Origin: a virus
Virus record (IMG/VR): IMGVR_UViG_3300019776_000550
Location: 1 to 64,000 of that record
Direction: 5' to 3' (one strand)
DNA length: 64,000 nucleotides
The translations under genes were made by a program, and so were the position numbers. Under the pieces are notes generated by a model. It did no database searches. It saw nothing but the letters and a program-made list of their open reading frames with translations, and was not told the DNA's origin. Every line of letters starts with the position of its first letter. Position 1 is the stretch's first letter. Shown piece after piece: positions 6,701 to 51,875 of this stretch.

Positions 6701-9700
6701 ACTTGGATAAAGATGGTAAGCAAAAGACTATTCAAGGTATTAGCTTTAATAATAATCTTAATCGTAGGTTGAACATTAAATCTATTGAAATACTAAGTAA
6801 AAATCTTAGCAATCTAATAGATTTAAAATTAAATGCTGAATTTTATATAAGCAATCTTCTTAAAACAATTAAAACAAAAGAAGAAAAAATTAACAATTAT
6901 AAACAAAAACTTAAAGCTTTAAATGCAAACGATGGTTCTGTAAAAAATATTGCAGATGATATTAAACAACTTTTAGCAACATCTATAGCAAATGAAATAA
7001 ATACGAGAGAATCAGATGTAGAGGTTTTAAAAGATAGTATTAAAAATTTAAAATTATTTGCAGATAAAGATGAAGCTTTTGATTTAGATAATCCTTTACC
7101 AAAAGTAATTCAAGAAGCTCTTGATACAGTACAAGCTTATCGTGATTCTAATGCTCAATTAAAAGAATCAGATAAGCAAAAACTTCTAAAAGAAAAACTC
7201 AAGCTTATAAATGAAGAAAGAAAAATTATTGCAGAAAAATTAGGTGAAATAAGTGAAGCAATAAAAGCGTCTTTACCTAAAGATGAACTCACACAAAACA
7301 TTTTAGATAAAAATGATAATCTTACAGATGCTTTATTAGAAATTATTGATAGTCAAGCTGAATCACCAAGTAAAGATGCTACATTTGTTGATTTGTATAA
7401 ACAACTTTTAACTAAAGAGATTGAATTAGCTGAAATCAGAAAAGAATTAGAAGATGATTTATATGATAAGATAGCACAAGAAACAGGTATTCTAAGTCCT
7501 AAAGCTATTAAATTAGGAGAATTAGATGCTATGATTAGTTTTTGGAATTATACTACTAACAAAGGTTATCGTTATAGTTCAGGTTATCCTAAATGGTATT
7601 CGAAGAACTTCCACGATGATGCTGATTTTGATGTAAGTGTATCTGAATCAGACAATGCGGATGAAAGTATAATTAAAACAAAAGCTCCTTCTGACCCTTC
7701 TAAGATTTCAGGAAAGTACGCTGATGAAAAAAGAAACTTTTTTAAATATTTTTATAGTGTACCTGTTGATAATGTTAATCCTATTAACTTAGAAGTAGAG
7801 GTAGATGGTGATACTATCTATCTTAAATTTGAGCATAATAAAATTCCAATGGTTACTACTTTACAGAGTTCTGTAAAAGATGGTAGTCCATTAGCTAAAT
7901 TTAGAGAATCACTTAAAGAAGCTTATGCTAAGAATCAAGCTGATGGAAAGAAAACTTTTATTACTCCTAATGGGAAGTTTTCAGCTTTTCAAAAAGGAAG
8001 TGTAAACAAACCTATTCAAGAAGTATTTAAAGGTATTGATTTTGATATAGAAGTTGCTGAAGGAAAGATAGGTGAAGAAGATGTAATTATGGAAGTAAAT
8101 AAGGTATTTTATAATGTTAAAAACGGAAGACCTTATGTTATAAATCGTAAATTAGGCATATTACAACCTGTAATTGTAGGAACTTTAGCAGAAGCTAAAA
8201 TTAAAGATAAAAAAGGTAATGTATTTACTCTTGCTGATACTATTTTCAATTATATAACTTATATTAAGTTATCAAAAGATAAAGTATCTGATAATGACTA
8301 TCAAAACCGAATTAAAAGTTTTTATATGCATTTGAATAGCTTTGTATTTACAGCTAATTCTAATTCTATTGGAACACAAGCTGATATGGTAAAAGGAGCT
8401 ATTGATATTATAGAAGCTGGAGGTGAGTGGTCATTGGTTTATTTAGATGCTGATGGTAATAAACAAAAGATTGATATATTTGATGAAGATGGTGTAAGCA
8501 AATTAGCAAAGGAACAAATTGAAAGACGATTAGTAAACCCTAAATTAGAAACTGAAAACTTTAAATATGATAATAAATTTAGTCCATTTGTTACATTTAT
8601 AGTTAATGAAAATGGACTTCCATTGCCTGTTAAATTAGACAAAGATGATTCTTATACTTACGCAACATTTTTAAAAGAATCAGCAGGTTTAAAAAGTAAT
8701 TTAGAAGTTCAAGATATTACAACTAATCCTACTTATTTTAAAGGAGGTTATTTTACTTTTGATGTTGACAGTAAACCTGTTGTAAATATAAATAATTTTA
8801 GTCCTAGAAGAATCATCAAGAAAGAATCTGCTCAAGAATCAGCAGCTGAAATACCTCCTGTTGTAAACACAAAGGCTAGTAGAAGAATCATCAAGAAAAA
8901 AGATGTAACAGATACAACATCAAGTTTTGATTTTGGTGCAACATCTGCTCAAGAATCAGCAGCTGAAGAAGCTGATGAAACATCTTCTGCTGAAGTACCT
9001 CCTGTTGTAAACACAATGGCTAGTAGATTTTCAGTAACAAAAAATAGATTTCAAAAAGAAGCTGATGATAAATCTGATGATTCAGATAATTTTTTCAATA
9101 AACAATCTCTTGAAATAGCAGGTACAGCTAGACTTAGAGATATGACAACTTCTGAATTAGAAGCTGCTAGAGATAAGTTTGAAAATAAATATGGTGTTAA
9201 TTTTGAATTAGTAAATGGGTTAATCAATGGTAGAGCTTGGGGTATGGTTACAAAAGCTGGTGAGGTATTTATATCAGATACAGCCCCATTAGGAACAGAT
9301 TATCATGAAGAGTTTCACCTAGTTAGTCAGCATATGTTAACTAAATCTGAATTAAATGATTTATATGCAGAAGCAAGAAACAGATACGGAAATCTAAATG
9401 ATTATGAATTAGAAGAACTTCTTGCAGAAGGATTTAGAATGTATGCACTTGGTTATAATGGCTTTGTTGGTAAAATAGCTTATTACTTTAATAAACTAAT
9501 AAATGGTATTAAATTATTATTGGGTATTAAAGGTACACCAATTGAGCAATTATATTCTGATATTTTGTATGGTAAGTATTATGCAAAACCTGTTTATGAA
9601 GGTACAGTTAGAAACAGTCAGGTTTTAAGCTATGATGAAAAGCAAGAAATTTCAAGTCATATTACTAAATTTGTATTACATACGATTAAAACAGCCGGTT

Positions 9701-12700
9701 TAGATAACGATAAAAAGCGATTTATAGAGTTTATTAACGATAGTTATTATCGTGAAAAAATGATAAATGAAGTTCTTAATCCTGAAGATTTTAATGATGA
9801 CCCTGACCTTAAACAACTTATCATTGATAATAACAGTAACGCAGTCGCATCTTATTTTGCTGTAGCGGTTCATACTTACATGGAACATTTGGAAAAAACA
9901 AATCCTTTTTTAGCTACTAAAGCATATAACACGTTTAAATACAGTGAAATATTATCATTTGCAAAAGCTTATTTCAACAACGTTCTTAAAACAAATATTG
10001 AAGAAGAAATTGATGAAGAAGAAGCTTCAACTACAAATGATATTAGAAAAAAAGGAGATGCTGAAACTGACTTCTTTACAAGTAGCTTAACTAAACTTCG
10101 TTTGTTAATTGTAAATGAAAGTGACGGTACAGAGTTTGGACATTTAAATCCTGCTACTTTTATGAGCATGATTTATAATCATATCAGAGATGCTAATGAG
10201 GATATATCTGATTACAATAGTTTTAAAAATAACTTAATAAGTTTATTAAGTAATAAAAATTTAGCAGATAGATACGGTAAAGAATACACAAATGGTTTAA
10301 GAAACATAATTCGATTATTAGATATGGATAAACCATTATCTGATAAAACTGATAAACATACTGTTAATTTACAGAATTTATTATTTGAAGTATTTTCTAA
10401 AGTAGAAAATGAATTTCAAGTATTAAAAGCTATATCAAGTGATGAAATAAAAAATAAATATAATACAGAAAATATAAATGATTTAAAAAAGACAATCCAA
10501 TCATTAGATTCTGAATTACTTTCTAAAATAGAAAATGAATTTGGAGTATCAAAAGCTATATCAAATGACAAAGGTATAATAAGAGCTTTTGTTAATCAAA
10601 CAATTGAAAAACAACATGATGCTATTCAAAAAAGAGTTAGAGATTCTATTATAAAAGAATTAGTTAATGGAAATTTAACATTAGATTCAAAAAAGAGAAG
10701 TTCAGCAGAAATAGCTCGTGTAGCTAATCAATTATTTGGCACAAATATTTATACAGAAAGTATGTTTTCATCTGCTGATTATGCATCTTCTAAGTTAGCT
10801 AATAGCATGTATCATACTATTAATCACATTTTAGATGGTAGAACTAGCGATAAACCTACAGTAAAAGAACGTGAACAACAAAAAGCTGAAAGAGCTGATA
10901 ATATTGCTAAAATATTAGATTATAATAAATCATCTATTGACAGAGTTGTGGCAACAATAGCTACAAGTGAAGGTTTAGATAAAGTATTTAATATTCGTAA
11001 TGCAGAAGGTTCTCCTCAATATAGTTTATCAAATTATTCTAGCGCACATAAAAGACTTGAAGATTACAAGAAGAAAGAAAACCCTTTAAAATCTGATTTA
11101 GAATTTACTAAATTAGTTTTAATGAATGGAGTTCAAACTAAGGGTAATGAAACAGAAGGTATTACAGCTAATAAACTTAATCAGCTTGATATTTTACTTT
11201 ATTATATTGAATCAGTTTTGAAAAACAAAGTTCTACCTTATGCTTTTAGTGGTGATAAATCAACATTATTAGGTATTAAAGCAAAAGGTTATGTTTTTGA
11301 AGATGATTATGATTTTACAAGAGTTTATAGTAAAATTCTTGATAAAGAAATAGCTTTCTTGCAAGCATTTGAAGGTAAAGAAGTTTTTCAAAAGATGAAG
11401 TTAGAACTTCCTACATTTGAAATTTTAAAACTTTCAAATTCTAAATTATACACTCAATTACTTAATGCTGTTAATAATAATACTTTAACCGATAATTTAA
11501 GAGAAGAAGCTATTAAAGCTTTGATTAAACATAATGAAATAAAAGGATATGAGTTAGCTGCTTACATTAAAGATAAAACAGGAGTTGAGTATGCAGAATC
11601 ACAGCTAGTTAAATTTTATAATATTTATACAACATCAATTGCTGAACAAACTAATGAGCTTACAGGCTCTCTTAATTTTTATAGTGATTTTGCTAAACGT
11701 GCTTATGCTTTATCATCTACTAAGATTAATCTTAGATTAGATGAAGAGTTTGTAAATTGGTACAATTCAAAATATAGCAAAGGTTTATATAAAATAAATG
11801 CAAATGAATTAAAATCAGTTGTAATTAATGATGTTGAAAGAAAAGCATTTGCAGCTGAATTAGGTGACTTTGATAATGCAGCTGATGCACAAGGTTACAT
11901 GCACTATCATTCTGCTAGATTTATGCTTGTGTCTAGTGGTAGATGGAATGAAAAACTTGATATGATTTTCAAAGATTTAGATAGATTAGAAGCTAAAACT
12001 CTTTTAACTGAATCAGATATAAGTCAGCATAATGATTTAATTGAAAAACTTAATGAACAAGTTAGTGTATTAAAACCTCAACATTTTGGTTTTCAAAATT
12101 ACAATGGTGTTGACGTACCTACTTTTTATAAGTTATCAGTATTACCACTTTCTAAAGTTATTACAACAGGTAGTAATTTAGATGTTGTTAGACAACTTAT
12201 GTTAAAAAGTGGTGTTGATTTAGTAATGTTTGAATCAGCTAATAAAGTTGGTAGAAGAATAGATAATGGTACTATATCAATGTATGATAAAAATGGTAAT
12301 TTTAATTTAGGAAGAGTTGTTAAATTAAATGTTAATTCTTATGATGGTAATATAAAACCTGATGAAAATACAGTATTTGTATTTGGAGCAAATCCTGAAT
12401 TTAGACATGGAGGAGGAGCAGCTAAAGTAGCCGTTGATAAATTTGGTATTCAAAACAAAGAATCTAAATCAAATAACGCTTATGGTTTAATTACTAAAGA
12501 CTTGATGGGTTATGGTAACTTTGATGAAAGCATTCTTGAAGTATCGGCTTTTGGAGGAGTTTACTATGAATCAGAAGGAGCAACTTTTTGGCCTGATTCT
12601 GTTGATTATAAAGGAGTGCGGTATCAAAAATTAGATGATGGAACTACTACTGTAGGAAAATTAGTTGAAGGTAAATATAGAAAAGGCAGTCAATTTGAAA

Positions 12701-15661: not shown

Positions 15662-18600
15662 ATGAGTTGTCAAGTAACTATTGAGAATGGATTACCTTCT
15701 AAAGTACATTCTACTAATGGGCGAGAAAGTAATCTTTATAAGAATTTGTTAGATTATTATAAAGGAGATTCTGTTACAGCTTTTGAAAAGTGGGCTGATT
15801 TAAATTCTAATAAAGATTTATTAGGTTTAACAAACCTTGATTCAAACGGAGAACCTATTGTAAATAACAATTTATATCTTGATAATGATATAACAACTCT
15901 GCTAGATTTTTATGCAAATGAATCTAATAATAGATATGCAGATAGTAAAGTTGTACTTAATCGAGTATTAAAAAATCTTAAAGCTAAATATCCCAAGTTA
16001 GCTAATAATATATACCCTGTAAAAGTACCTACAGGAGGAGGTTATGCTTATAAATTTGATTTAAAAAGTGATAATGTTTATTATCAACTTGGTAATAGTC
16101 AAGTTAAACCTGGAGTAGAAGAGTTATTTGATTCTAATCCTGAGTTAGCTAATATAGGTACTGCTGAACAATACTCTCAATACTTAGATACCATATTTCC
16201 TGATAGTAAAGTAAAGGATATTGTTTATCATGGTACTAAATCAAATGAAGTAAGAACAATATTTGATAAAAATACAATACAAAAAACAGGAGTTGGTTTA
16301 GGAAAAGGATTCTTTTTTGCAGGAGATAAAAGTTATTCTCAAAGAGATGTATATAGCTACAAAACAATTGGCTCATATCTATTAAATTTAAAAAATCCTA
16401 TTTTTGGTTATCCTAATACTTTTATAGAAAAAAATAGAATTAACGATGTTCCTAAAGAATATCTTGAACAATATTCTGATGAAAAAGAATTAAAAAATTT
16501 AGATGCTTCTGAAAAAACAGAATTAATGCAAAAACTTGGATACGATGGTGTTGTTTATAAACAAGGAGAATACGCTAATGAAAATGTAGTATTTGAACCA
16601 GAACAAATCCACATACTAGGAAGTAAAAAAGATATAGAAGGATTTAAAAAGTTTGTTAATCAAAATCAATTTCAACAAAAACAATCTAATCAAAAGCAAC
16701 CTTCTGATAGTAAGCTCAATGCAAAAATTAAAACACTCTTGGAGGCTATTGGTGTAAGAGTTGATTATATTGAGAACAGTAGATTCAAAGATACAGGAGC
16801 TTTAGGTGTAGCAGATATGTTAGCTAAAGTAGCTTATGTATCTATGAACAAAAGTCGTATTGATACTCTTCCTGAAGAAGCAGCTCACTTTTTTGTTGAT
16901 TATATTGAACAAATTAAAGACCCTTTGTTTAATTCTATGATGTATGATATTGAAAAATATGATATATTTATGGAAACTTATCAACAATATAAAAATACTT
17001 ATACAAAAAGCGACGGAAGTCCTGATATGTATAAAATTAGAAAAGAAGCTATTGGTAAAATGATAGCTAAAATTATTGTTGATAGAAATAATGTAAATGA
17101 ATCACAAGGATTAATTGATAGATTTACAAGATGGCTTGATAAAGTTTTAGATAAATTTAAAACTCAATTAGCTAAAATAGGATTAATTAATGAAGCTGCT
17201 GTAGAAAATTATTTTGAATTAGCAGCTAGTAATATTCTTAAAGGTAAGTATCAAGGTGAATTTAATGCAAATAATAATTATTATAACCAACAACTATTGA
17301 CAGAGTCACAAAGAAAAAACATAGCTAACTTAAAGCAATCAGATAGCAGATGGAGTAAGTATAGTGACGAAGATATACAAAGATTTATTGATTCTGTATT
17401 TCCTAATAGCAAAGTAAAAGATATTGTTTATCATGGTACAAAAAATAAATTTGATAATTTTGATATTACCAAATATAGATTTGAAAAAGCTATTTTCTTT
17501 TTTAAAGATTATATAAATGCTTTAAAATGGGAAAGTAATTCATTTACTATAACAAAAAGAGATTTAAGTAATATATTTAAACTAAATGAAGAAATAAATC
17601 TTGATGATAATAGTATAGAAAATAATATTTTTCATGCTTTAGCAGGTGCTGACAATATAGAACAATTAAAAGAACTTCCTAATTACGAATTGTTAATAGA
17701 AGATTTTAATAAAATAGGAGGTGTTGATATTTATTTAAATAAAAATCTTAATGAAATCAGGTTAATTTTAAATAAATATATAAATAAAAACCAAAATAAT
17801 GTTATTTCTGCGATATTAAATTTAAAAAATCCCAAACAAGCTTCTAATTTAAATTATATTAAACAAAGTAAAGAAGGGGAAGAAATTAAAAAAATTTTTA
17901 ATGATGCTTCTAAAAATAATGATGGTGTTATATTAGAAAATATAACAGAATATACATCTTCTTTAAAAGATGCTGAAAAAAATTATAAAACTAAAACTGT
18001 TACTTTTAATGGAATTTTTGGAATACAAACTGATGATTTATATTCAGTAAATACTGATACTCAATATGCAGTATTTGAACCAAGTCAGATTTATATTCTA
18101 AATTCAGATAAAGCTATATCTGATATGGAAAGATTTGTTAATGAAAGTGCTTATTTTCAGCTTAGTAATGAACAAAAGAAATTAGATGCTATTATTACTA
18201 AAAGAAATGATGAAATACGAACAGTAGAAAAAGCAGATGGAAATGATATAAAAGAGATACTTAAAGATGGAGTTTGGCAATATATTAAACGAGTATCAGA
18301 AGTTGTTAAAGCTAAAGGTAAGTATTATAATAATACACAAGAACTGACAGATGTACAAAAGAAAGCCAATGATAATAAAGCTGCTTTTGGTACTAAAGTT
18401 CACAATGATATGATGATTTTAGTAAATAAAGCTTTAGGTAAAACTGACAATAGACCTTTAATGCTTAATTCAGCTTATCATGCAAAAATGAATCGTTTTA
18501 TAAAAGCTATTATTGAAGAATTTAATCCTGACACACATGAATATTATACAGAAGTAAACATTCACAATGGTAAACTTGCTGGTACAATTGATTTGATTAT

Positions 18601-21600
18601 AATAGATTCAGAAGGAAGAGCTAATATATTTGATTATAAAACATCAACTGGTATAATTGATAGACCTAATATTGCAAAATCTTATACTGACAAGTGGTAT
18701 GAGCAACTTATGCAATATAGAACTATATTAAAAGATTACGGAGTAACCAAGTTTGGTCAAACTCGTATGATACCTATTAACGTTAATTTTAGTGATAAAG
18801 TAACTGCAAAAGAAGGTACAGACTTAGTAACTGAATTTCAAATAGGTAATAACAAATACAACGACGAAGAAGGTTTTCAAAATCTTAATCCAGTACCTTC
18901 ACCAGATGAAAGAACTGGAATTACTAACATTGATAAAATGATTAGCAAAATTGAAGACAGGATTCGTCAATTAAGTGCTAAAAGTGATAGTGAAAGTAGA
19001 TATAAAGTTGATGAATTAAAACGTGATATTGCTAAATTACAAGTTAGTAAAAATCTTGACGTAATTAAAAACCAAGCAGAAATTGATTTAAATATTATTA
19101 AAGGTTTAATTAAGAAATCAGAAAGTGAAAGTTTAACAAGTGAAGAAATTTTTAACTTGTTACAACTTTATGATTATTATGAAGATAGACTTAAAGAGAA
19201 TTTAGTTTTTGATAAAGATAAAAAAGCTATACCTGAAATATTAGAAACTTCGGGTTATGTGCAAGAGCAAAAAGAAGTTATTGATAACATTTTAAAAGCT
19301 TATAATAATACATTTGAGGTAACAGATGAAATTATAAAACCTTCTAGTTGGTGGAATAGATTATATAAATTATCAGATTATGATATTCCTGCATTTCAAG
19401 GTTTGTACAAACTTTTTAATAGAATAGCTGCTCAAAAAGAAATAAAAGTTAGAAAACTTAAAGAAGAAGTTAAAGATATAATTGCTCAAATTAAAACTGA
19501 AACAGGTAAAAGCGGAGTCGATATGTTTTTACCAATTTTACAAAAGGATAAAAATGGTAAACCTAATGGTAAACTAATTGCTCAAAAGAAAGCTGAATGG
19601 TTTACTTTTGTTGACGATAATCAAAAAGGTTTGTATAAAAATCTTGATTCGTTTTCAATGAGTCATATTAAAAATACTCCATTAGGACAATATGTGAAGT
19701 TAGATGAACTCAATGAATACTTTAAAACTAAATTAACAGAAAAAGCAAAATCATTAGAATCATCTTCTGATACTTATAAAGCAGAAGCATTAAAAAGATA
19801 TAAAGCTTTTCTTATTAGTGTTACACTTGGTAAAGCTAATTCAAAGTTTTATGATACTGAAAATGCTAATTTTGATAAATTCTTAAATCCTGAGTATGTT
19901 ACATACATCAGAAGTAATCCTAATGGGGGATTAGCAAAGATTTATAAAAAAATAGTAGAACTTAATCAGTATGCTAATCAACATGCTGACGCTGATATAA
20001 GACATACTAACTTAATACCTTATGTTCGTAAAGGTACAGTTAGGAATTTTATAGATAGTGGATTTAATCTTAGAGCTTTAAGAGACAATGCACTTGATGA
20101 CCTTCGTACAGAAGAGTGGGAATCGTTTGAATTAGATTCACAAGGTAATAAAATATATAAAGTTCCACTTCAATATAATACAAGTGAAAGTAAAAGAGAT
20201 GTATCACAACAGTCATTTGATTTAGGTGAAGTTCTTGTTTTATGGGCTGATGCAGTTTATGGTAATGAACTTTTACAAAATCAACATGATACATCGTTGT
20301 TGTTTTTAGAAGGACTTAAAAGAAGCAAAGAATATGTAACTCAAAATGGTAAGTTAGTTACTAAAAATGGAGAATATGCAACTAAAAATACAGATTTTGA
20401 AACTATTCAACAATATATAGAATATCATAACAATTTCTTTTATGGTCAATCATCTAAAGATGAAGATAGTGAATTATTAGGAATGAGTAGAAGAAAAGCA
20501 GTTAAAGCTGTTAGTAAACATTTTTCAGCTACTCAATTAGCAATAAATTTATTTTCAGGATTATCTAACCTTACAGGAGGATTAGTAGGTGCTTATTCTT
20601 ATGCTGGAGATGAATTTAAAAAATCTGATTATACTAAAGCACAATATCAACTTACATTAAAGAGTATTTTTAACAAGGATTCTAAAGTTTATGCAGCAAT
20701 TAAAATGTTTGATGTAGATTCAAATGTTTATGATGCTAGTAATTTTAAAGATGTAAGTGTTGATAAAATTAATAAATTCTTTACTTGGGATAAACTTTAT
20801 ACTTTACAGAAAAAAGGAGACTGGTTGTTGCAAAATGCAACATTAGTAGCTATGTCACAGAATTATACCATTAAAGATAATAAAATAGTAAAAAAAACAG
20901 ACGGAGATAAAAACCTGTTAGAACTATTAGAAGTTAATGATAAAGGTCAGTATAGATTACCAATAGCTAATGAAGAGGAATTATTTAGATTTAGAGAAAA
21001 AGTAAGAGCTGTTAACTCTCAAATTATAGGTAATACAAGTGAATATGATATACAACTTGCTGGAAATACTCTTACTGGACAACTATCACTTCAATTTCGT
21101 AGATGGATGTTACCAATAGGAACAAGTAAATTTGGTTCTCTTAAATATAATGCAACTTTAGAAAAAATGACTTATGGTAAATACAGAAGTACTGGCAAGC
21201 TTGTGTGGGAAACCATGATAAAAGAAAAAACTCTTAAACCTATATTTGAGTTTATTAAGAATACTAAAAATGGTAAATTAGATTTATGGTTATTAGAAAA
21301 ATATAATGAAGACCTTAAAATTAACCCTAAACTAGGTAGCTTTGATGATTATAGAAATCTATATTTTAGAAATATGAAAGCTACTTTGATGGAAGCTACT
21401 ATTCTACTGGGTATTATAGGACTTAAAGCTGGTTTAAAAGGTGATGATGATGAAGAAAAAGAAGCTTGGCAAAAAGTATTAAATCGTATTTTAAGTAGAA
21501 CAGTTGCTGAAAACAGTTTTTGGTTTAATCCAAATAGCTTTTTTGAAATTGTACAATCACCTATTCCTATGATTAATTTTGCTAGAAATATTTATGATGT

Positions 21601-21745
21601 ATTTACAATACCAAAAGATGTTTATGAAGCATTTATTTTAGGAGAAGAAGATGTTTTTGATAATTATGATAAGTTTGGAAAATTAATAATAGGTTACAAC
21701 AGTTGGTTGTCTTTTATGAATGAAATAGAAAAAGATAATGAGTAA
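15662..21745 (+). CDS. Large polyvalent virion/ejection protein (two ART-like modules, degenerate zincin, PD-(D/E)xK nuclease)
   Basis: Two VYHGT...LNLKNP...DGV...VFEPxQI modules; PEEAAH; GTKVH...AGTIDLIIID...IFDYKT...QLMQY. Confidence 0.7.
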   Translation: MSCQVTIENGLPSKVHSTNGRESNLYKNLLDYYKGDSVTAFEKWADLNSNKDLLGLTNLDSNGEPIVNNNLYLDNDITTLLDFYANESNNRYADSKVVLNRVLKNLKAKYPKLANNIYPVKVPTGGGYAYKFDLKSDNVYYQLGNSQVKPGVEELFDSNPELANIGTAEQYSQYLDTIFPDSKVKDIVYHGTKSNEVRTIFDKNTIQKTGVGLGKGFFFAGDKSYSQRDVYSYKTIGSYLLNLKNPIFGYPNTFIEKNRINDVPKEYLEQYSDEKELKNLDASEKTELMQKLGYDGVVYKQGEYANENVVFEPEQIHILGSKKDIEGFKKFVNQNQFQQKQSNQKQPSDSKLNAKIKTLLEAIGVRVDYIENSRFKDTGALGVADMLAKVAYVSMNKSRIDTLPEEAAHFFVDYIEQIKDPLFNSMMYDIEKYDIFMETYQQYKNTYTKSDGSPDMYKIRKEAIGKMIAKIIVDRNNVNESQGLIDRFTRWLDKVLDKFKTQLAKIGLINEAAVENYFELAASNILKGKYQGEFNANNNYYNQQLLTESQRKNIANLKQSDSRWSKYSDEDIQRFIDSVFPNSKVKDIVYHGTKNKFDNFDITKYRFEKAIFFFKDYINALKWESNSFTITKRDLSNIFKLNEEINLDDNSIENNIFHALAGADNIEQLKELPNYELLIEDFNKIGGVDIYLNKNLNEIRLILNKYINKNQNNVISAILNLKNPKQASNLNYIKQSKEGEEIKKIFNDASKNNDGVILENITEYTSSLKDAEKNYKTKTVTFNGIFGIQTDDLYSVNTDTQYAVFEPSQIYILNSDKAISDMERFVNESAYFQLSNEQKKLDAIITKRNDEIRTVEKADGNDIKEILKDGVWQYIKRVSEVVKAKGKYYNNTQELTDVQKKANDNKAAFGTKVHNDMMILVNKALGKTDNRPLMLNSAYHAKMNRFIKAIIEEFNPDTHEYYTEVNIHNGKLAGTIDLIIIDSEGRANIFDYKTSTGIIDRPNIAKSYTDKWYEQLMQYRTILKDYGVTKFGQTRMIPINVNFSDKVTAKEGTDLVTEFQIGNNKYNDEEGFQNLNPVPSPDERTGITNIDKMISKIEDRIRQLSAKSDSESRYKVDELKRDIAKLQVSKNLDVIKNQAEIDLNIIKGLIKKSESESLTSEEIFNLLQLYDYYEDRLKENLVFDKDKKAIPEILETSGYVQEQKEVIDNILKAYNNTFEVTDEIIKPSSWWNRLYKLSDYDIPAFQGLYKLFNRIAAQKEIKVRKLKEEVKDIIAQIKTETGKSGVDMFLPILQKDKNGKPNGKLIAQKKAEWFTFVDDNQKGLYKNLDSFSMSHIKNTPLGQYVKLDELNEYFKTKLTEKAKSLESSSDTYKAEALKRYKAFLISVTLGKANSKFYDTENANFDKFLNPEYVTYIRSNPNGGLAKIYKKIVELNQYANQHADADIRHTNLIPYVRKGTVRNFIDSGFNLRALRDNALDDLRTEEWESFELDSQGNKIYKVPLQYNTSESKRDVSQQSFDLGEVLVLWADAVYGNELLQNQHDTSLLFLEGLKRSKEYVTQNGKLVTKNGEYATKNTDFETIQQYIEYHNNFFYGQSSKDEDSELLGMSRRKAVKAVSKHFSATQLAINLFSGLSNLTGGLVGAYSYAGDEFKKSDYTKAQYQLTLKSIFNKDSKVYAAIKMFDVDSNVYDASNFKDVSVDKINKFFTWDKLYTLQKKGDWLLQNATLVAMSQNYTIKDNKIVKKTDGDKNLLELLEVNDKGQYRLPIANEEELFRFREKVRAVNSQIIGNTSEYDIQLAGNTLTGQLSLQFRRWMLPIGTSKFGSLKYNATLEKMTYGKYRSTGKLVWETMIKEKTLKPIFEFIKNTKNGKLDLWLLEKYNEDLKINPKLGSFDDYRNLYFRNMKATLMEATILLGIIGLKAGLKGDDDEEKEAWQKVLNRILSRTVAENSFWFNPNSFFEIVQSPIPMINFARNIYDVFTIPKDVYEAFILGEEDVFDNYDKFGKLIIGYNSWLSFMNEIEKDNE

Positions 21746-42568: not shown

Positions 42569-44500
42569 TTAAAATAGTTTTAATTGATTTTTGTTAACTT
42601 TTTTATTCTTACTTTTATAATCTTGTTCAATATCATCAATAAGCTTTTGAGCTTCTTGAATATAATATCTAAAATCTATATCAGTAGGAAAATCATCAGG
42701 TAATCTGTTAATTAATTCTACATTAAATCCTGAAACTATTTGAGATATTCTACCATCTTCAAATACTTTTTTAAGTTTCTTATAAGATTTAGCTACATAA
42801 AATCTAACAGTTCTTGATACTTCTTCTTCTTGAATAGAAACACCGTTATAAACTTGAATAACAAGTTTATCTTTTTTGTTACAACGTTCTTTTAAACAAA
42901 ACTTTTTAATATCATAACAAGTTGTTATAGTTTCTCTAATAGAAATATTGTTTACAAAATAGTTAATAGCTGCAATTACACTAATTTGATTGCTATAATC
43001 TTTATGATAAGGGTCAGGTACTGAATCTGATTTTAAATCAGGTACATAAGCTCCTTTGTACTTATATTTATTTTCTTTAGTTATAGCAAAATAATTATTT
43101 ACATCTCTAATAAACATGGCTTTATAAAAAACTTCTTCTAATTCCATGTTAAAAAAAGATTCCCATTGATTACATATCTTTCTAAAATTGTCAATTTGAT
43201 TATTATTAACATAAACGGTAATACCATCTGTATTAGCTTGTATAATTTGACAATCTTCTATTTCTGATATATCTTCTAATAACTTTAATAATCTAAGTTG
43301 ACCATTAATAGTTACTTTAAATGTACACGCAATATCATACAAAAAACTATACTTATCCTTAAATTTGCCATAAACACTATTAAGTGCTTTTTTATAAGTA
43401 TCAGATTGAATTTTAGCATTTTTATCACTTTTAATAAGTGATTTATTTTGCTTTCTCCAAGTAACTTGTGATTTAGCAACTTTAAGAAAAGATTCTTTAT
43501 TAAGATGTTCAGGCACTGCTTCTAAATCTATATAAAGTGAAGGATATAGTGATGCTACATCTACATCAATTATACTATGAGTAGAAGACTCTTTGAAAAC
43601 ACCTTTTAAAGAACCATGAATACCACCTTTTTTAACATCTAATTTAAGTTCTTTAATATATACATCAAATGCAACTTTATTTTCAATGCTATCTTTATTA
43701 TCATTGCTATTATAAATAACAACTTTTTTAAGTTCGTGTTGAAGTTCTTTTAAATGATTTTGTTTAAAGTTGATATGTTGTATTATATCTTTTAAATTAA
43801 CAAAATCTCTATTAGTTCTTCTTTGTAGAACTTCTTGTGGGTTCTCATTTGTTTCTTTACAATAATAATATAAAAAAAGATGTTCTCCTAACTTAGAATC
43901 TGACCAATTAATACAATCTAAATTTGTATTTTGTTTGATATTTTGTCTAAGTCTTATGTTATCAACCATTTTTAAGAAAAACTGATAAGTAGCTTGAACA
44001 TCATTAAGATTGTATTCAAGTATTTTATTTTGTTCTTCTATCTTTGTAATTGTAGAAGTATAATGATAAGGCATATCTTCTACATTAGGCAATTCTAAAG
44101 CAACTTCTAATTGTTTTAAAGAAGTTCTTCTTGCTGGATTATCAAAATGAGCTATACTAAATACATCAATCTGACTAAATATAGGATTTCTAATCCTATT
44201 GAATTTAGGAGTTTCGGTATTTACAAGTCTTTGACTTTCTTTATATAACAAATCATTCATTTCTTCTAATGGGAGATTACCAACTATATTGAAAAGATAA
44301 TCTAAAAGTGGATAATCATAGTTTAAGTTATTAAAACCTATACCTATTATACCACTATTTACAAAATCTTTATATTCTTGATAATCATTATTAAATATAG
44401 ATAAGGTGAAGCTTTTAACTTCACCTGTATCTATATCTAACCACGTTGAACAATGAAAATTTTTAAATTGCTCAATATCATATACCCAAATATTTCTCAT
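42569..44500 (-). CDS. Family B DNA polymerase with 3'-5' exonuclease domain
   Basis: VYDIE, GFNNLNYD, YNLNDV exonuclease motifs; DVASLYPS, KKALNSVYGK, NTDGI polymerase motifs. Confidence 0.92.
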   Translation of the reverse strand: MRNIWVYDIEQFKNFHCSTWLDIDTGEVKSFTLSIFNNDYQEYKDFVNSGIIGIGFNNLNYDYPLLDYLFNIVGNLPLEEMNDLLYKESQRLVNTETPKFNRIRNPIFSQIDVFSIAHFDNPARRTSLKQLEVALELPNVEDMPYHYTSTITKIEEQNKILEYNLNDVQATYQFFLKMVDNIRLRQNIKQNTNLDCINWSDSKLGEHLFLYYYCKETNENPQEVLQRRTNRDFVNLKDIIQHINFKQNHLKELQHELKKVVIYNSNDNKDSIENKVAFDVYIKELKLDVKKGGIHGSLKGVFKESSTHSIIDVDVASLYPSLYIDLEAVPEHLNKESFLKVAKSQVTWRKQNKSLIKSDKNAKIQSDTYKKALNSVYGKFKDKYSFLYDIACTFKVTINGQLRLLKLLEDISEIEDCQIIQANTDGITVYVNNNQIDNFRKICNQWESFFNMELEEVFYKAMFIRDVNNYFAITKENKYKYKGAYVPDLKSDSVPDPYHKDYSNQISVIAAINYFVNNISIRETITTCYDIKKFCLKERCNKKDKLVIQVYNGVSIQEEEVSRTVRFYVAKSYKKLKKVFEDGRISQIVSGFNVELINRLPDDFPTDIDFRYYIQEAQKLIDDIEQDYKSKNKKVNKNQLKLF

Positions 44501-44502
44501 AA

Positions 44503-44968
44503 TTACTGATTTAGTGATTGATAAACTTCAAACACTCCAAGTTTTTCTAATAAAACTCGTAAAGGTTCTCCACCAAAAGAAAATCGTGTATGATTCCATG
44601 ATATTTCTAATGATTCATGTTCGTCGAGATGTACAACAAAATAATTAGATTTATTAAGAATTATACTATTTACAGTATATTCTTTATTTTCTATTATAGG
44701 TAATTCTCCTGATGCTATAATCATAGAAATTATATCATCAGGAATACCTTTATCATTTGTACAAACTACTTTTAATTCACTACTAGGCTTAATTATCATC
44801 TAAATCCTTTTTGACACCTATGATAATTAAAACTAATACTGTTCCATAGATTAAACCATGTATTACAGCTAATGTTGGATTATGCTGAATAGCATAAATT
44901 GTATCTGTAATCCATAAAAACAGCACTAGTGTTAATGCTGCCAAGAATAAGCTCATAATAGTTTTCAT
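44503..44968 (-). CDS. Hypothetical ORF (44503-44799) and a 59-aa two-TM membrane protein (44789-44968, not in track)
   Basis: MKTIMSLFLAALTLVLFLW...VLIIIGVKKDLDDN* read by hand. Confidence 0.5.
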
Positions 44969-45052
44969 TATTAAAATTATTATTGGTTACTGATTAATTA
45001 ACTGCTGTAATTTAACAATAAAAAGGGAGTTTTTCAACTCCCTTTGATTTAA

Positions 45053-45886
45053 TTATGCGTTGATTTCTGTTAACATACCAAGATTACGAACTGCATATTG
45101 GTTTTGTAACCACTCTTGAAATTCAGCATTAAACAATGCACCTTGTTTTACTGCAACAGGAACACTATCAGCAGGGATAACATCATCATGCTTAAATTCA
45201 GCATTATTTTTCAATTCATTTGCTCTAAAACCTGCTAAAGACGCTTGTATGTCAGTAGTAGGTCTTACTACTAATGTAGTAAATTGAAAAATGAGTTTAT
45301 TATTTAATAACAAAACATCACCTCCTTTACCACTACGCTTGGGTTCAAGTGTAATCAAACCTGTTGTGGTAAGCTGTGGCATTTGAAGAGTTGTTGTGTT
45401 ATTACGAACAATATACGTAACAAAATTCTTCTTTACTAAACTTTCACTAAAGTTAAATCCATCTTTAATACCATTAGCTTCACAAAAAGCCAATGTTGTA
45501 GTTTGCCAAAAATACTTTTGGCGACTTGAATTTGACACTCTACCCATTAGGAAATAACCTAACAGACTAGAACTGTCTTCAATTTCATCACTTGATTCAA
45601 CATTTTGAGTAAACTCAAGTTGAAACGTAAGTGCATTAATACATGTAATACGTTTTTCTTCTTTTGAAGAATTTACAAATGCAGCATTAGGTTCTGCATT
45701 AAATATTTGTTTATATACAAAACCAAGTTCTTCATGGCTTTTATCAATAAACAAAGCATTTTTACTGGCTTTGATTTCTTCATAAGAAGTCATTCCAGTA
45801 GCTGCAATAGTAGGTTTTGTTATTTTAACTTTGTTAACAATAACTGGATTTGTGATTTCGAACGGATTTGAAATTTCAGTTGACAT
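45053..45886 (-). CDS. Hypothetical early protein
   Basis: 277-aa ORF followed by a terminator hairpin at ~45020-45046. Confidence 0.6.
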   Translation of the reverse strand: MSTEISNPFEITNPVIVNKVKITKPTIAATGMTSYEEIKASKNALFIDKSHEELGFVYKQIFNAEPNAAFVNSSKEEKRITCINALTFQLEFTQNVESSDEIEDSSSLLGYFLMGRVSNSSRQKYFWQTTTLAFCEANGIKDGFNFSESLVKKNFVTYIVRNNTTTLQMPQLTTTGLITLEPKRSGKGGDVLLLNNKLIFQFTTLVVRPTTDIQASLAGFRANELKNNAEFKHDDVIPADSVPVAVKQGALFNAEFQEWLQNQYAVRNLGMLTEINA

Positions 45887-45939
45887 AGTTTGATTTATTT
45901 AAGTTGGTTTGAAAAAAAAAAAAAAAAAAATATAAGATG

Positions 45940-47266
45940 TTAATATACTACATTGTTCAATCTCAATGATTTAAGATTTTGTTTCTTAATCCATTGTGAA
46001 TTATTGAGAACAGATAAAATCTGTTTACGTGCGTCATAATATGACTTAGCATGTACAGATATGACAAATTCATATCTAGTATTTCCAAACTGTTTATCTT
46101 TACTTTCTGTTTCTCTACCTGTATAACTACAAGTATTTACTTTAGAAATTGAAATTTGTTTACCAAATAAATCTACAATACCCGTGTATATCATAATTTA
46201 AAATAATTGTTTTCAATTTCTTTTTCATATTCAACATGTTCAATAGCTTGTTCTATGTTATGAGGACATGTACTTTGTACTCTTTGATTGTTTCTCACAA
46301 TCATTTTAAGAGTATTACGTAGATGATTGATGTCCATAGCATCAATATCTACATATTTTCCATCTTTAGTTCTCCAATATACTTTTTCCATTGTCATAAA
46401 TTTTTTAAAAAGGAAGTGATTTTTCACTTCCTTTTGTTTGATTTACATCAACCACTTATTTGCATTTTGTTGATGGTATTCAACCATCAAGTTAGCTTTT
46501 TGTGGATTCAAATAAATCCACATTTGCTTCGCCGTTTTGTACTCATCGTACACTTTCTTTGCATTTATGCAAGTAAATTCGTACATGTCAATAACATGTA
46601 CAACTTGCTCTACGTTTTCTCCTCCTGCTGCTTTAGGAAGAGTGAAGTAGAATACCATTTCTCCTATACAAGCGGCAATTTGAAAATTGCCCTTGCAGAA
46701 AATCTTTCCTGTTGGAAATACAGCGGTGAAATTTAATTCACCATTTCCAAACGTCTTTGTGATTTTAATTCCGTTAATGTTATTCATGTTCTTCTATGTT
46801 TAGTGATGTTAAAAATGAAACCATACCCACGATACATAAGTTGTATGTGGCAAAAAATAATTTAACATAAGAGACATGAATGTCTATTACATTAAAAAAT
46901 AAATATTCTGCTAATATCAATAACACATATATAAAAAGTGTCATTAATATTATAAAAATTAATCTTGTTATTTTCATTTTTTTTTTGTGATTAAAATAAA
47001 ATATTCCTATTCAGTAAAACTAAATAGGAATATAATCATTTGTCCATCATTTATCTGAAATATACGAAAATGTCGTCGTATATTTCAGATACAACCACTA
47101 CTGCTCCAATAAGAGCAAACATTAGACCGCCACCTATTAAATAGGCGACTGACATTATTACTTCATGGTAATTAATGTCAAATATAAGACTGATAAAGGC
47201 TGCAGGAATTACGAATAGAATAGACCATACAGCTACAAATCCAATAAGACAAATTAATGCTTTCAT
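45940..47266 (-). CDS. Cluster of small early ORFs (45940-46194, 46191-46427, 46443-46787, 46780-46977, 47051-47266)
   Basis: Small co-oriented ORFs; the last two are hydrophobic two-TM proteins. Confidence 0.55.
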
Positions 47267-47298
47267 TTTATTTTTTTTTTTTTTAAGGTTTATGTTCT

Positions 47299-47369
47299 TT
47301 TTTCTTCACTCTGCTTTTTACAAGGACTTGTGACCTTCTATATTAAATATAGGTAGCATTAAAGAAAAA
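47299..47369 (-). ncRNA. Twister ribozyme (type P1, with P3)
   Basis: Minus strand: UUUUUCUU UAA UGCU AC CUAUA-UUUAA-UAUAG AAGG UCACAAGU CCUU GUAAAA AGCA GAGUG AAGAAAAA. P1, P2, P3 and P4 pair; both pseudoknots (CAC/GUG and AC/GU) pair. Confidence 0.9.
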
Positions 47370-47406
47370 GCATCTATTCTCCCAACAGATGCTTTGAATA
47401 GTTGTG

Positions 47407-47547
47407 CTACACTTTTACACAACTAAGAATCAAGGAACTTTCATCCTTAATAATAGAAATAGCTTCCATAACAGAAGAAGCTTCAATTTCCATATTAAGA
47501 ACAATAATTCCTGTTCTCAGACGGTAACTTACTAAATACTTGTTCAT
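47407..47547 (-). CDS. Small early ORF (46 aa, not in track)
   Basis: MNKYLVSYRLRTG...LSCVKV*. Confidence 0.55.
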   Translation of the reverse strand: MNKYLVSYRLRTGIIVLNMEIEASSVMEAISIIKDESSLILSCVKV

Positions 47548-47580
47548 AGTATTAGGTTTAAATGTAAGAAAATAGAATTA

Positions 47581-47751
47581 CTATTGAATTTTAATAATTC
47601 CGTCATAATCTACGGAATATATCAAAAATCTTTTATCTCTTATCTCTCTCCAGATAGAAGCATTTTTCAGAGTTTTTAATCTTTCTAACGCATCTTCTAA
47701 TGATTCAAACCATATATATTCATAGTCTGAATTAAATATAAAGTATTCCAT
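47581..47751 (-). CDS. Small early ORF (56 aa, not in track)
   Basis: MEYFIFNSDYEYIWFESLEDALERL...IIKIQ*. Confidence 0.55.
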   Translation of the reverse strand: MEYFIFNSDYEYIWFESLEDALERLKTLKNASIWREIRDKRFLIYSVDYDGIIKIQ

Positions 47752-47824
47752 AATAAACAATTAAAAATGAATAAAACAGAATTGTGACAGTTTCTAAGAT
47801 AACTGACAAAACTTATTGTTTGCA

Positions 47825-48240
47825 TTACAATATTGTAACACCTGTTAAAACTCTTGAAGTTGTATTATTTACAACTTCATAAAATTCCCAAACCATGTCT
47901 CCATTGTTATAATTAAACATAGAGACATAAATAGAATTAGAATCATAACATTCTAATTCTATAAATTCTTTCCATGCTTTTTCCAAACCATTTTCATGGT
48001 TTGTATGAGTTGGGAAAAATTCAATAAATTTCAATTCTTTCAACATAAATCTTCTATTTTTAAATCTAAAACTGGAAGTTCTTTTACTATTTTGTAATAA
48101 TAACTTTCTGAGTCATCAGTAGGTTGATTATTAACAAAATTCTGAACTTTTTCTAAGTCTTTTTCTTGTATCTTACCTAGTAAGATATTTTCATCACAGT
48201 GTCCTTTACCGTGATAATAATATTTGAATAAATACATCAT
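47825..48240 (-). CDS. Two small early ORFs (47825-48046, 48040-48240)
   Basis: ORF track; poly-A run immediately before the 48240 start. Confidence 0.55.
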
Positions 48241-48544
48241 TTTTTTTTTTTTGATTTAATTACACAGCTTAAAATAAAATAATTACAATTGTATGATTTA
48301 ATGCAAGTAGTTTGATTAACTTCTCGGAACTAACTTTCATAAGAATTTCTTCTTATAACCAGTACATCCTTTGCACATACAATTGTAATTAATTGTTTTT
48401 AAATGTTCGGTTGTGTCTGTTTTGTATATCACAACTTTATCTTACACATCTATTGAGAAACCTCCAATGTCTCAAATGTTTTTCAATGTGTAAACCAGAT
48501 GCTTTACTTCAAACATTTCAAAGCTTCAATGGAGTTTGTAAGCT

Positions 48545-48670
48545 TTGAATAACAATGACCTTTTAACTTACATGATTTTCTCATGTAAAACTTTTATAAA
48601 AGTAGTTTCAAGATTTATTTAGACACGTTTATCTCATCATCAGATTGTTTTCGTGTATATTTTAATTCAA
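48545..48670 (-). ncRNA. Hammerhead ribozyme, type I
   Basis: Minus strand: AACAAU CUGAUGA U GAGAU-loop-AUCUU GAAA C...GUC AUUGUU. Stem I AACAAU/AUUGUU extends via UUGAAU/AUUCAA. Stem-I bulge ACACG is complementary to loop-II CGUGU. Confidence 0.85.
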
Positions 48671-49030
48671 AACTTAATAATAAAACAACAACTCTAGGTG
48701 TACATATCATAGGTAGTGAGCCTATGTACATATTTTTCACAGTTGAGCGTTGTTGCTTTATTATCTACTTCTAATAACATCAGTTGTCTTTTGTTATTAG
48801 ATTCACCTTCTGTTCACTCTAAGCAAGTACGTGTTATTGTATTAACACAATGCGATATGAGCATAAACAGTTTTCATCTCCTTATTTAAGGGAAACTAGG
48901 TTAGTCAAAAAAAAAAGAAGTAGTTTATTCTTTCAGATGTCTTTTAAAAAGACGGAAAGATGGACACAGCTGACATTGTAAGCAGTCCTACTTCTTTTAC
49001 GTAATCCTACCATCATGTCACTAGGTAGGT

Positions 49031-49095
49031 TTCCCACTCAACCTTCTATCATTATGATAGCTAACCCTTGTGAAGTTAGAATGAGGTTTTAAGAA
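49031..49095 (-). ncRNA. Putative variant twister ribozyme (type P1, with P5)
   Basis: Minus strand: UUCU UAA AACC UC AUU CUAAC UUCACAAGG GUUAG CUAUCA-UAA-UGAUAG AA GGUU GAGUG GGAA. L4 has one extra U and P1 is short. Confidence 0.6.
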
Positions 49096-49149
49096 TCGTT
49101 AGTTTTATTCTGTTGCCAAGAAAAACTAACAAAAAACTCCGAATCTTAT

Positions 49150-49500
49150 TCAGTCGCAGAGTTCAGACCTAACACAACCTGAATGTGCAAATGGAAATCC
49201 ATCATACATTCCACCTCCGCAATGACTACAAGTAGTCTCTGCAAAAGTGTCATGGATTTTTTCCATTGCTTCATTGGTTGCTGGTTCAGACATCAACTCT
49301 AGCAATACTTTCCTTAAATCATAAGGATTATGGACTTTGTAAGTATTATGCTCACAATCCATAGCGTATGCAGAGTCAATATTCTCATGCGTTATGTTTA
49401 TACACTTATTATTGTAATAAGCTGATAAGCAATAAACATGAGGTAGTCTGTGACCATTAAAGTCTAAACCAAACTGCTCTACAAGGACTAATTCTGTCAT
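49150..49500 (-). CDS. Small early protein with C-terminal CxxC
   Basis: Likely start MTELVL at 49500; CSHC...H..C motif. Confidence 0.5.
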   Translation of the reverse strand: MTELVLVEQFGLDFNGHRLPHVYCLSAYYNNKCINITHENIDSAYAMDCEHNTYKVHNPYDLRKVLLELMSEPATNEAMEKIHDTFAETTCSHCGGGMYDGFPFAHSGCVRSELCD

Positions 49501-49642
49501 TGTTTTACAATTTAATTTAAAAAGTTTTTCTACTAACATAACTTCTAGTAGATAAAGTGATACTAATTACCTGTTGATTCTCAAGATGTATCAAGTCTTG
49601 ATTCCTTATACTCAGTTAGCAGGTTCTGAGTTTAGGATTGAG

Positions 49643-50008
49643 TTACAGAGTAACCACTTTCTCTCTCAAATTACGAGAGACATGGTTTCTCAATGTCTGC
49701 AAATCTGCCTGTTCTTTACAGACAAACTCTCCATTTGCTTCTCTAACAAGAGTAGCAATAATAGGAAAGTTCCCTGTAAGTCCATGCAGTGCTACTAATA
49801 CCATAGTAGCTAATGCAGACATTCCTGGAACTGCTACCGTAACAACAGTATTACTTTCAACCCCTAAAGATTGAAGATACTTTGTTACAGCTTCCAAATT
49901 TTCCCCAAATGGTTTTTCAGGGTTAATTTGAACAGTTCCATGAAACTCAAATCCTAATTCATCAAGACTCTTGTTAAAGTGTCCTGACAAGTTAAGTTTC
50001 TTGTTCAT
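49643..50008 (-). CDS. Csx15-like (type III CRISPR accessory, CARF-related) protein
   Basis: LNLSGH...PGMSALATMVLVALHGLTGNFPII...F...DLQTLR...R resembles my recollection of the Csx15 consensus (NFSH..PGL..A..LAELHGR.G.FP...NLQ..R). Likely ATG at 50008. Confidence 0.65.
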   Translation of the reverse strand: MNKKLNLSGHFNKSLDELGFEFHGTVQINPEKPFGENLEAVTKYLQSLGVESNTVVTVAVPGMSALATMVLVALHGLTGNFPIIATLVREANGEFVCKEQADLQTLRNHVSRNLREKVVTL

Positions 50009-50196
50009 TTTTAAGGAACGTAGGAAACTAATGTGTTCTATTCTAAGTAAGAACACTTAACTTGCAACCACTAAAGTAGGTTACTTTCACTTTGTAGCAT
50101 ATTTAAAAATCTGGAGGTAATGCTACTTAACCTCACTGTTAGCTTTTTATATAAAAAAGCTAAAAAAACAAAAACAAAAAGAAAAAAAAGCTAGGA

Positions 50197-50427
50197 TTAA
50201 CCTAGCTTGAATTTCTGGATGATAGCGTCTAACACGCTATCAGCAACACCGTAACCATTTGCGTATTCAATAACACTGACTTCTGCATCAGTGAATTTCT
50301 CCGCGATACATATTAACGTTTGCGAAGCTTTTGACAGCTTCTCGTAAATTTCGTCGGTGACTTCCACACCTTTTCTGCCCGATACCTTTCTATCGGTATC
50401 TTTAACATCTAACTTTATCTGAGCCAT
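50197..50427 (-). CDS. First gene of the leftward (early) unit, hypothetical
   Basis: 76-aa ORF with an overlapping terminator-like hairpin at its 3' end. Confidence 0.6.
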   Translation of the reverse strand: MAQIKLDVKDTDRKVSGRKGVEVTDEIYEKLSKASQTLICIAEKFTDAEVSVIEYANGYGVADSVLDAIIQKFKLG

Positions 50428-50439
50428 TTTCTTTTTTGT

Positions 50440-50880
50440 TTAAAGTTTATTGGGGGTACAACCCCTCGCAATTTCAGTAGGGGGTGGCTAAGGTAAGTAG
50501 TTCCTCAATCAGCAAATTTCCACAACTTCTATTAAAATTATGATGTCTTCATTCAGCAAATCTTTTTGTAGCACTATAATCAGCTAGGGGGGTCTTTTAG
50601 TATATTAATCCAAAGTACCTTCTTTTGTAGTAGGGATATTAGGTATATCATGTTCAGCAAGTGTATTTTTAATGTCAATTCTATTGTTCTAATGGGGGTT
50701 ATTCAGTAGGTTTTTGCTGTTTTTGGCTGTTTTCATTTTAAAATAGTTTTTTTAAGTATATGGAAAACGGTCATTTTAAGCTACTTTTAGAGTTAACTGC
50801 CTGATTATCAATCAGTTTACTATGTCAAAATTATAATTTTACTATGTCAATATTTTGACAGTTTTTTCGCTATATTTGTA
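50440..50880. promoter_or_regulatory. Divergence region: candidate origin/promoter zone
   Basis: Non-coding between divergent blocks. Six WTCAGYW repeats, G-runs, TTTACTATGTCAA direct repeat, Bacteroidota-type -7 box TATATTTG at 50871. Confidence 0.55.
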
Positions 50881-50888
50881 CAAATCAT

Positions 50889-51431
50889 TTGATAAAAATG
50901 AAGATAAAAGAAGTAATAAAAATCAATAAAGTAGCTGTAAAAGTAAGAGATGTAGATATAGGTGTTAATCCTTTCATGAAAGATGTAAATATTAAAGTAT
51001 CTGTAGTAAATTTAGAAGGTGATTATGTTAAAGAGGATGATTTATACTTACCAAATAACACTTATATTGAATCAGAACCTTATACAAAGATTTTTATAAA
51101 TGCTGAAAACAGAAAAATTGTTAATAAATTAACACAACGAGGTAAAGATTTGCTATTATGGTTGCTTTATGAGATGGAAGCTGGTCAAGATTTTATTAAA
51201 ATTAATAAAGTTAGATATATGAAAGAATTAAGTATCAAATCTGTTAATACTTATAAAACAGCTTTATCAGAATTAATAAGATATGGTATGTTAAAGGAGT
51301 CAAAAGCAAAAGATATATACTGGATTAATTCACAATTCTTTTTTAATGGTAATAGAATCAAGAAATATAAAAAACAACTGATAAATAAAGATGGCAATAG
51401 AATTAATAATAAAGAGAAAGGCGTTTCCTGA
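50889..51431 (+). CDS. RepL-like replication/regulatory protein (winged-helix)
   Basis: S.NT...ALSELI..G......YWIN..FFFNGNRI motif. Confidence 0.72.
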   Translation: MIKMKIKEVIKINKVAVKVRDVDIGVNPFMKDVNIKVSVVNLEGDYVKEDDLYLPNNTYIESEPYTKIFINAENRKIVNKLTQRGKDLLLWLLYEMEAGQDFIKINKVRYMKELSIKSVNTYKTALSELIRYGMLKESKAKDIYWINSQFFFNGNRIKKYKKQLINKDGNRINNKEKGVS

Positions 51432-51875
51432 AAGAGAAAAACTAGAGTTAAGGTTAAAAGAAATGGGATTTAAGAATAAAATTGATTCTAAACCTTATAC
51501 TGCTTGGAAAATATGGAATAGTTTTTTGGTTATTCGTACTTACGGTAACTATTATACAGTACATACTAACGGAGATATAGACCATTATGAAGTTAAAAAA
51601 TGTGCTTATCAAGGTATTAGTTACGAAATGAACAATTTTGATTTTTTAGGTCAACTTTTAACAAAAAAAGATATAGAACAATGAACTTAGAAGAAGTAAC
51701 AAAGATAAGAGTAAGAATCAAAGCTCTTCAATTGCAAGTTGATACTGCCAATAGTATCATAGAAAAAGCTGAACTAATGGATGAAATTGAAGATTTAAAA
51801 ATTCAAGTTGGTGATTTTGAAAGAAAAGTAAGAGATATTAGTGATGATTTAGATTGTGAAAACTGTAGCGGATAA
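51391..51875 (+). CDS. Two hypothetical ORFs (51391-51684, 51681-51875)
   Basis: The second ends in DCENCSG. Confidence 0.5.

Follow-up and report, generated by a model that had tools for sequence, protein, structure and literature searches.

Genomic context of the locus

The window, the whole stretch of 64,000 nucleotides analyzed here, derives from a complete IMG/VR virus record of 91,498 bp with terminal repeats. The terminase, portal, and major head protein of this virus match PHROGs, and the terminase shares approximately 30% identity with terminases of Flavobacterium phage FpV4, Cellulophaga phages, and Bacteroides crAss-like phages. Judged from its sequence, the virus is an uncultured, distant crAss-like phage of freshwater, and its host probably belongs to the Bacteroidota. 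DNA of this phage was seen again in freshwater and other aquatic metagenomes from 11 studies, and a megablast search of GenBank phages with 6 kb of the window gave no match. In the structural arm (plus strand), two giant open reading frames (ORFs) at 3784-15645 (3953 aa) and 15662-21745 (2027 aa, with no PHROG match) may encode large virion proteins or the RNA polymerase of crAss-like phages.

The ribozyme locus lies on the replication-side (minus) strand, in a 140-nt spacer flanked by two small genes (Table 1). It is surrounded by small minus-strand ORFs, with the DNA polymerase downstream of them. The 71-aa protein encoded behind the ribozyme has five homologues of 79 to 99% identity that differ by conservative changes, which marks the ORF as a real gene. 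The protein matched no Pfam or PHROG family and nothing in viral_contigs, and an alignment of its homologues found no match in the JGI metagenome contigs; the same contigs held no exact match to a 37-nt half of the ribozyme. Another ORF on the minus strand, at 49643-50056, had been proposed to be Csx15-like; neither PHROGs nor Pfam (E values up to 0.01) yielded a match to it. The ATG of the 71-aa ORF (47266) is located 32 nt past the end of the ribozyme, in agreement with the distance of about 30 nt given in the original prediction. The leader in between is A-rich and has no Shine-Dalgarno sequence, as expected for a Bacteroidota host.

Table 1. Features of the ribozyme locus, in the direction of transcription (window coordinates)
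Feature	Position	Strand	Sequence and pairing	Basis or remark
Upstream ORF, 46 aa	47407..47547	-		Stop 12 nt before P0
P0/L0 stem-loop	47367..47395	-	12 bp, AAAGCAUCUGUU / AAUAGAUGCUUU, loop GGGAG	Terminator scan and folds
P1, 5' strand	47362..47369	-	UUUUUCUU; pairs with 47299..47306, 8 bp (U47369-U47362 with A47299-A47306)	
UAA	47359..47361	-		Predicted cut U47361/A47360; Rfam alignment
General acid; conserved A2	A47360; A47359	-		Residue roles per PMC11662667
P2, 5' strand	47355..47358	-	UGCU	Rfam alignment
L2 dinucleotide, 5' half of T2	47353..47354	-	AC	Consensus GC
P3 hairpin	47338..47352	-	CUAUA-UUUAA-UAUAG; C47352-A47348 with U47342-G47338, loop UUUAA	
P4 and L4	47322..47337	-	AAGG/CCUU; A47337-G47334 with C47325-U47322	
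Loop L4	47326..47333	-	UCACAAGU	T1 half C47332 A47331 C47330; T2 half G47327 U47326
P2, 3' strand	47312..47315	-	AGCA	Rfam alignment
GAGUG	47307..47311	-	GAGUG	G47311 general base; G47309 U47308 G47307 form the T1 half
P1, 3' strand	47299..47306	-	AAGAAAAA	Continues into A-rich leader
Downstream ORF, 71 aa	47051..47266	-		Two predicted transmembrane helices
Terminator-like hairpin closing the 71-aa gene unit	47001..47033	-		Terminator scan

Terminator-like hairpins are strongly enriched in this region, with 15 found in a terminator scan of the 7 kb at 44500-51500 versus 1.6 expected. Those at 50208-50188, 47395-47367, 47033-47001, and 45045-45022 directly follow small minus-strand ORFs, and after each of them an A-rich leader and an ATG occur within about 25 to 35 nt. 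Matches to the sigma-70 promoter are at chance level (41 versus 39.6). With only 23 to 32 nt from a hairpin or the ribozyme to the next ATG, there is no room for separate promoters, so the downstream genes would need read-through transcription.

Architecture of the twister ribozyme

By its sequence, the element at 47299-47369 on the minus strand is a complete type P1 twister ribozyme. The Rfam twister-P1 model (RF03160), a search with which had been suggested as a check, aligned from end to end (1-68/68) with 58.9 bits and zero nonstandard pairs flagged. The E value is 4.4e-13 over 271 nt and 1e-10 over the whole 64-kb window, well outside what chance would give, and twister-P1 is the sole credible Rfam match in the window. 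All twister elements named in the original prediction are present on this strand, and the Rfam alignment supports, at the level of sequence, the cut and the catalytic G that it had assigned. Folding by minimum free energy (MFE) alone recovered P1, P2, P3, and P4 (z of -2.6).

The score falls under the gathering score of the Rfam model, which is 67.2, and a scan at default gathering scores is silent; the match appears with E-value thresholds only. The gathering score is a database threshold rather than a property of the RNA, and the score of the window copy is low in part because covariance models give no credit for pseudoknot covariation. Describing the ribozyme as canonical is correct for its architecture but too strong where databases are concerned, given this position under the gathering score. 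A covariance model built from 34 pattern-matched phage twisters (model R1; see below), with the window copy in its seed, gives this copy 69.2 bits.

The positions needed for catalysis are intact. In twisters, the A that follows the cut serves as general acid and the G that begins the 3' strand of L1 as general base (McKinley et al. 2024, PMC11662667). This conserved G is present here (G47311, followed by A47310), as are the invariant closing pair of P4 (G47334-C47325) and the conserved L4 nucleotides U47333, A47329, and A47328. The minus strand reads GUAAAA between the P4 region and P2'.

Twisters are held together by two pseudoknots. In T1, L4 forms three Watson-Crick pairs with the 3' strand of L1, and T2, named PK1 by McKinley et al., joins the L2 "GC" to two bulged nucleotides of L4 by two pairs (PMC5408937). 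In the window copy, T1 is formed by C47332-G47307, A47331-U47308, and C47330-G47309 and T2 by A47354-U47326 and C47353-G47327, all of them Watson-Crick pairs. The four departures from the Rfam consensus thus amount to two compensated pairs (T2 AC/GU and T1 CAC/GUG). The first had been recognized in the original prediction as changed and compensated, which holds; the second, a middle T1 pair that changed from C-G to A47331-U47308, had been overlooked. Pseudoknots of twisters tolerate Watson-Crick or wobble changes, and the descriptor of McKinley et al. accepts "NC" at L2 (PMC11662667). The twister of the window is probably active as a self-cleaving ribozyme.

A pseudoknot version common among phages

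Viral contigs were searched with the pattern GGTCACAAGTCC-N6-20-GAGTG, in which the L2 side of T2 was left free, and more than 106 loci matched, a number that is a lower bound. An initial regex descriptor recognized 42 of 109 pattern matches, and the covariance model shows that nearly all of them are twisters. Model R1 called 104 twisters in the first 100 matched loci, including copies that the pattern had not selected. The version with CAC/GUG and AC/GU is common among predicted phage twisters; the viral contigs that contain it number at least 100. The window copy is, as far as its sequence tells, an ordinary member of this phage-typical version. The AC/GU change that had drawn attention to the locus is therefore real but not a special feature of the window copy, since it defines a common phage version, and this copy by itself adds little.

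The pairing scheme is well supported across 87 distinct copies. Paired cells make up 93.9% of the total, versus 72% for shuffled alignments and 24 to 44% with slid partners; the covariation score is 0.54 versus 0.15 for shuffled copies, 15 of the 19 pairs change on both sides, and covariation extends to all four pairs of P2. At T2, 74 copies have A-U, 7 have G-C, and 3 have G-U, and the L2 and L4 dinucleotides change together, with AC facing GU in 72 copies, GC facing GC in 7, and GC facing GU in 3 (Fisher p of 3e-8). At the middle pair of T1, 85 relatives have A-U and 1 has G-C, a count to be read knowing that the pattern fixed this pair in most rows; one copy carries T1 as CGC/GCG.

When 14 other phage twisters from five loci were scored with the Rfam model, all 14 fell below the gathering score, at 33.7 to 64.4 bits. 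The gathering score misses the common phage version entirely, which leaves twisters under-annotated in the genomes of phages.

The P0 hairpin and the spacing of phage twisters

The 12-bp P0 hairpin directly upstream of P1 was absent from the original prediction. It is followed by UUCUUU and scores as an intrinsic terminator in the terminator scan. The last three U of the P0 element (47369-47367) are also the outer end of P1, the U tract being the 5' strand of that helix. P0 is an optional stem found in about 10% of twisters and lowers cleavage in vitro; in the CHiTA assay, P0-bearing twisters gave 0.40, or 0.67 when P3 was also present, versus 0.85 (PMC11662667).

In the phage set, the 50 nt ending in P1 contain a strong hairpin at 72% of the twisters, versus 21% at random sites. 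In 51% of cases (16% in the null) the stop of an ORF is 40 nt or less upstream, and in 40% (14% in the null) the start of an ORF is equally close downstream, with a median of 40 nt to the upstream stop and of about 104 nt to the next start. The two strands of P1 differ strongly in composition; across the 87 phage twisters of alignment A2, the 5' strand has 1.5 purines per 5 positions and the 3' strand 3.8 per 5. Shine-Dalgarno-like 4-mers are found within the P1 3' strand or immediately behind it at 58% of the twisters versus 24%. This pattern points to P1 often masking the ribosome-binding site of the next gene before cleavage. The biological role of bacterial and phage twisters is still open (PMC6765202), and the family values for P0 frequency, position after a stop codon, and purine-rich P1 3' strand are testable predictions for it.

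Relatives and co-occurring strains

The more abundant strain in run X5 is represented by a contig that spans 47298-47469. Relative to the window, it has 1 substitution in the 67 nt of 47329-47395 versus 11 in the 43 nt of 47396-47438 (p of 1e-4), and the latter segment also contains 3 indels. The lone substitution, at 47378, keeps the P0 pairing as G-U. In the 46-aa ORF of this relative, four of the six changes within 47407-47419 are silent, including that of the stop codon from TAG to TAA. A window-like contig from the same run (depth of 96) stops at 47327, and contigs of the abundant strain (depth of 361 to 461) branch exactly at 47298, a single nucleotide outside P1. One of the X5 contigs rejoins the window only at the terminator hairpin (46994-47034), indicating that a different insert replaces the 71-aa gene and its leader (47034-47298). 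Cassette swapping at twister edges was also considered as a family-wide process and was set aside, as 112 locus pairs gave no general signal of it.

Among relatives found through the DNA polymerase, one with 37% identity has no twister in its 76%-complete record, and one with 64% identity has none on an 8-kb fragment that stops short of the twister region. These relatives argue that the twister is inessential to this phage lineage. Near the ribozyme, RNA libraries X19 and X20 matched the poly-A/T tract at 47266-47303 only, which is of low complexity and uninformative on expression or transcript ends.

Other ribozyme-like elements in the window

A divergent twister-like element is situated at 49030-49096 on the minus strand, with a predicted cut at 49091/49090. 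It consists of P1 UUCU/GGAA, U/AA, P2 AACC/GGUU, L4 UUCACAAGG, a P5 hairpin, and GAGUG. Model R1 gives it 22.7 bits (E of 1.9e-6 in 900 nt, with filters off), and no Rfam match was obtained at E values up to 10. A metatranscriptome contig (X20) matches 49029-49095 and has unlike flanks. A hammerhead had been proposed at 48545-48670 (minus strand), where the core motifs CUGAUGA, GAAA, and GUC occur. At E values up to 10 this segment, too, matched nothing in Rfam. Its MFE fold does not improve on those of shuffled sequences (z of -0.76) and is not a three-way hammerhead.

Proposed role of the twister

The locus belongs to a complete phage genome and shows a tidy order of gene, P0/terminator, twister, leader, membrane-protein gene, and terminator. 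With good confidence, the element can be read as a genuine, probably active P1 twister with P0 and P3 stems, which most likely would cut a polycistronic read-through transcript. The ribozyme would fold on the read-through RNA and cleave between U47361 and A47360. The upstream product would end in the P0 hairpin followed by a U-rich tail of 9 nt that carries a 2',3'-cyclic phosphate, approximately the same end as that left by termination at P0, and this hairpin end should withstand 3' exonucleases. The downstream product would begin with a 5'-OH and carry the compact ribozyme core, the freed A-rich leader, and then the membrane-protein gene. The cut would in this way uncouple the stability and translation of adjacent cistrons without a host nuclease. 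The roles proposed for the two products draw on what is generally known of RNA decay in bacteria. Several points speak against this explanation: efficient termination at P0 would leave little RNA containing the ribozyme, P0-bearing twisters cleave less in CHiTA and P0 and P1 here have three U in common, the score is under the Rfam cutoff, and the two relatives found through the DNA polymerase have no twister in the sequence available.

According to the original prediction, the ribozyme would define the 5' end of the downstream mRNA. This is half the picture, since a terminator-like hairpin adjoins P1 and the spacing within the family is tighter upstream; the same two observations make 3' end formation of the upstream RNA at least as likely a purpose. 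That the ribozyme mainly makes the 5' end of the 71-aa mRNA, switching on or stabilizing the message while P1 holds the leader until the cut, is a possible though somewhat doubtful reading. The short distance from the end of the ribozyme to the ATG favors it, as do the excess of nearby ORF starts across the family, the purine-rich P1 3' strand, and the Shine-Dalgarno-like 4-mers. The leader at this locus, however, has no such motif, and only 8 of its about 45 nucleotides are in P1; the co-occurring strain keeps the ribozyme and P0 and swaps the downstream sequence, and family spacing is tighter to the upstream stop than to the downstream start. This reading and the cleavage of a read-through transcript are mutually compatible.

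The swapped sequence raises another alternative, in which the ribozyme and P0 mark a module boundary for the exchange of gene cassettes and are present as much through recombination as for RNA processing. The X5 contigs, which branch at 47298 and rejoin at 46994-47034, and the distant relatives without a twister are consistent with it. On the other hand, the branching was seen in one sample whose inserted sequence is unread, and contig breaks also come from assembly. Of the 112 locus pairs whose twisters share at least 90% identity, 102 keep at least 80% identity downstream and at least 60% upstream, and the downstream flank is lost in only 6. This alternative appears unlikely. Less probable still is that the element survives as an inactive relic or serves as a structural RNA only, with a hairpin that is a plain terminator and a fold that no longer cleaves. 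The score under the gathering cutoff, the reduced cleavage of P0-bearing twisters in vitro, and the single clear copy in the genome would fit a relic. Against it, the conserved and catalytic positions are undamaged, all four departures from the consensus are compensated pairwise, the sequence is kept in a relative whose flank diverged by about 25%, and 94% of natural twisters cleaved when tested in vitro (PMC11662667).

Beyond the cleavage of a read-through transcript at this locus, it is conceivable, as a tentative proposal with the odds against it, that the P0 hairpin and the twister of phages form one unit, serving as a self-contained transcript insulator and as a portable joint at which strains swap small early genes. 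The hairpin would act as a leaky terminator and would cap and protect the 3' end of the upstream RNA. The ribozyme would trim each read-through RNA to that same end and release the next cistron, whose ribosome-binding region, or the purine-rich P1 3' strand, would be masked until the cut. Such a unit, if true, would explain in general terms the clustering of twisters near the genes of phages.

Comparison with known systems

The window copy shares with the Rfam twister family RF03160 (Roth et al. 2014, reviewed in PMC5408937; tested en masse in PMC11662667) the order of P1, UAA, P2, L2, P3, P4/L4, P2', GAGNG, and P1'. Both have the catalytic A and G and a double pseudoknot, with P0 and P3 as optional stems. 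It differs in having AC for GC at L2, UCACAAGU for UCCCAAGC at L4, and GAGUG for GAGGG in the 3' strand of L1. It is also very A+U rich, with 32% G+C, and scores 58.9 bits against the gathering score of 67.2.

Self-cleaving ribozymes that share one orientation and lie between small phage genes, as in the window, are also present in two other viral records. Locus L030 (IMGVR_UViG_3300029389_000052) contains six co-oriented twisters and a Pistol ribozyme within about 6 kb, and locus L029 (IMGVR_UViG_3300045988_048686) contains three twisters and RAGATH-28. The Pistol ribozyme, at 62.6 bits, is above its own gathering score, and all twisters of both loci are under theirs. The window differs from these loci in that it contains a single clear twister, accompanied 1.7 kb upstream by the divergent twister-like element, and lacks a pistol.

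The cultured Clostridium phage c-st (AP008983 / NC_007581, locus L070) has a twister of this pseudoknot version as well, with GGUCACAAGUCC ... GAGUG and an AC junction; in its GenBank record, the twister site (about 43.3-43.4 kb) carries no annotated feature. The c-st twister (AP008983 43385-43426) scores 55.6 bits with model R1. Its P3 is longer than that of the window copy, and the host phylum and the phage type are different; the two ribozymes are 86% identical over 42 nt.
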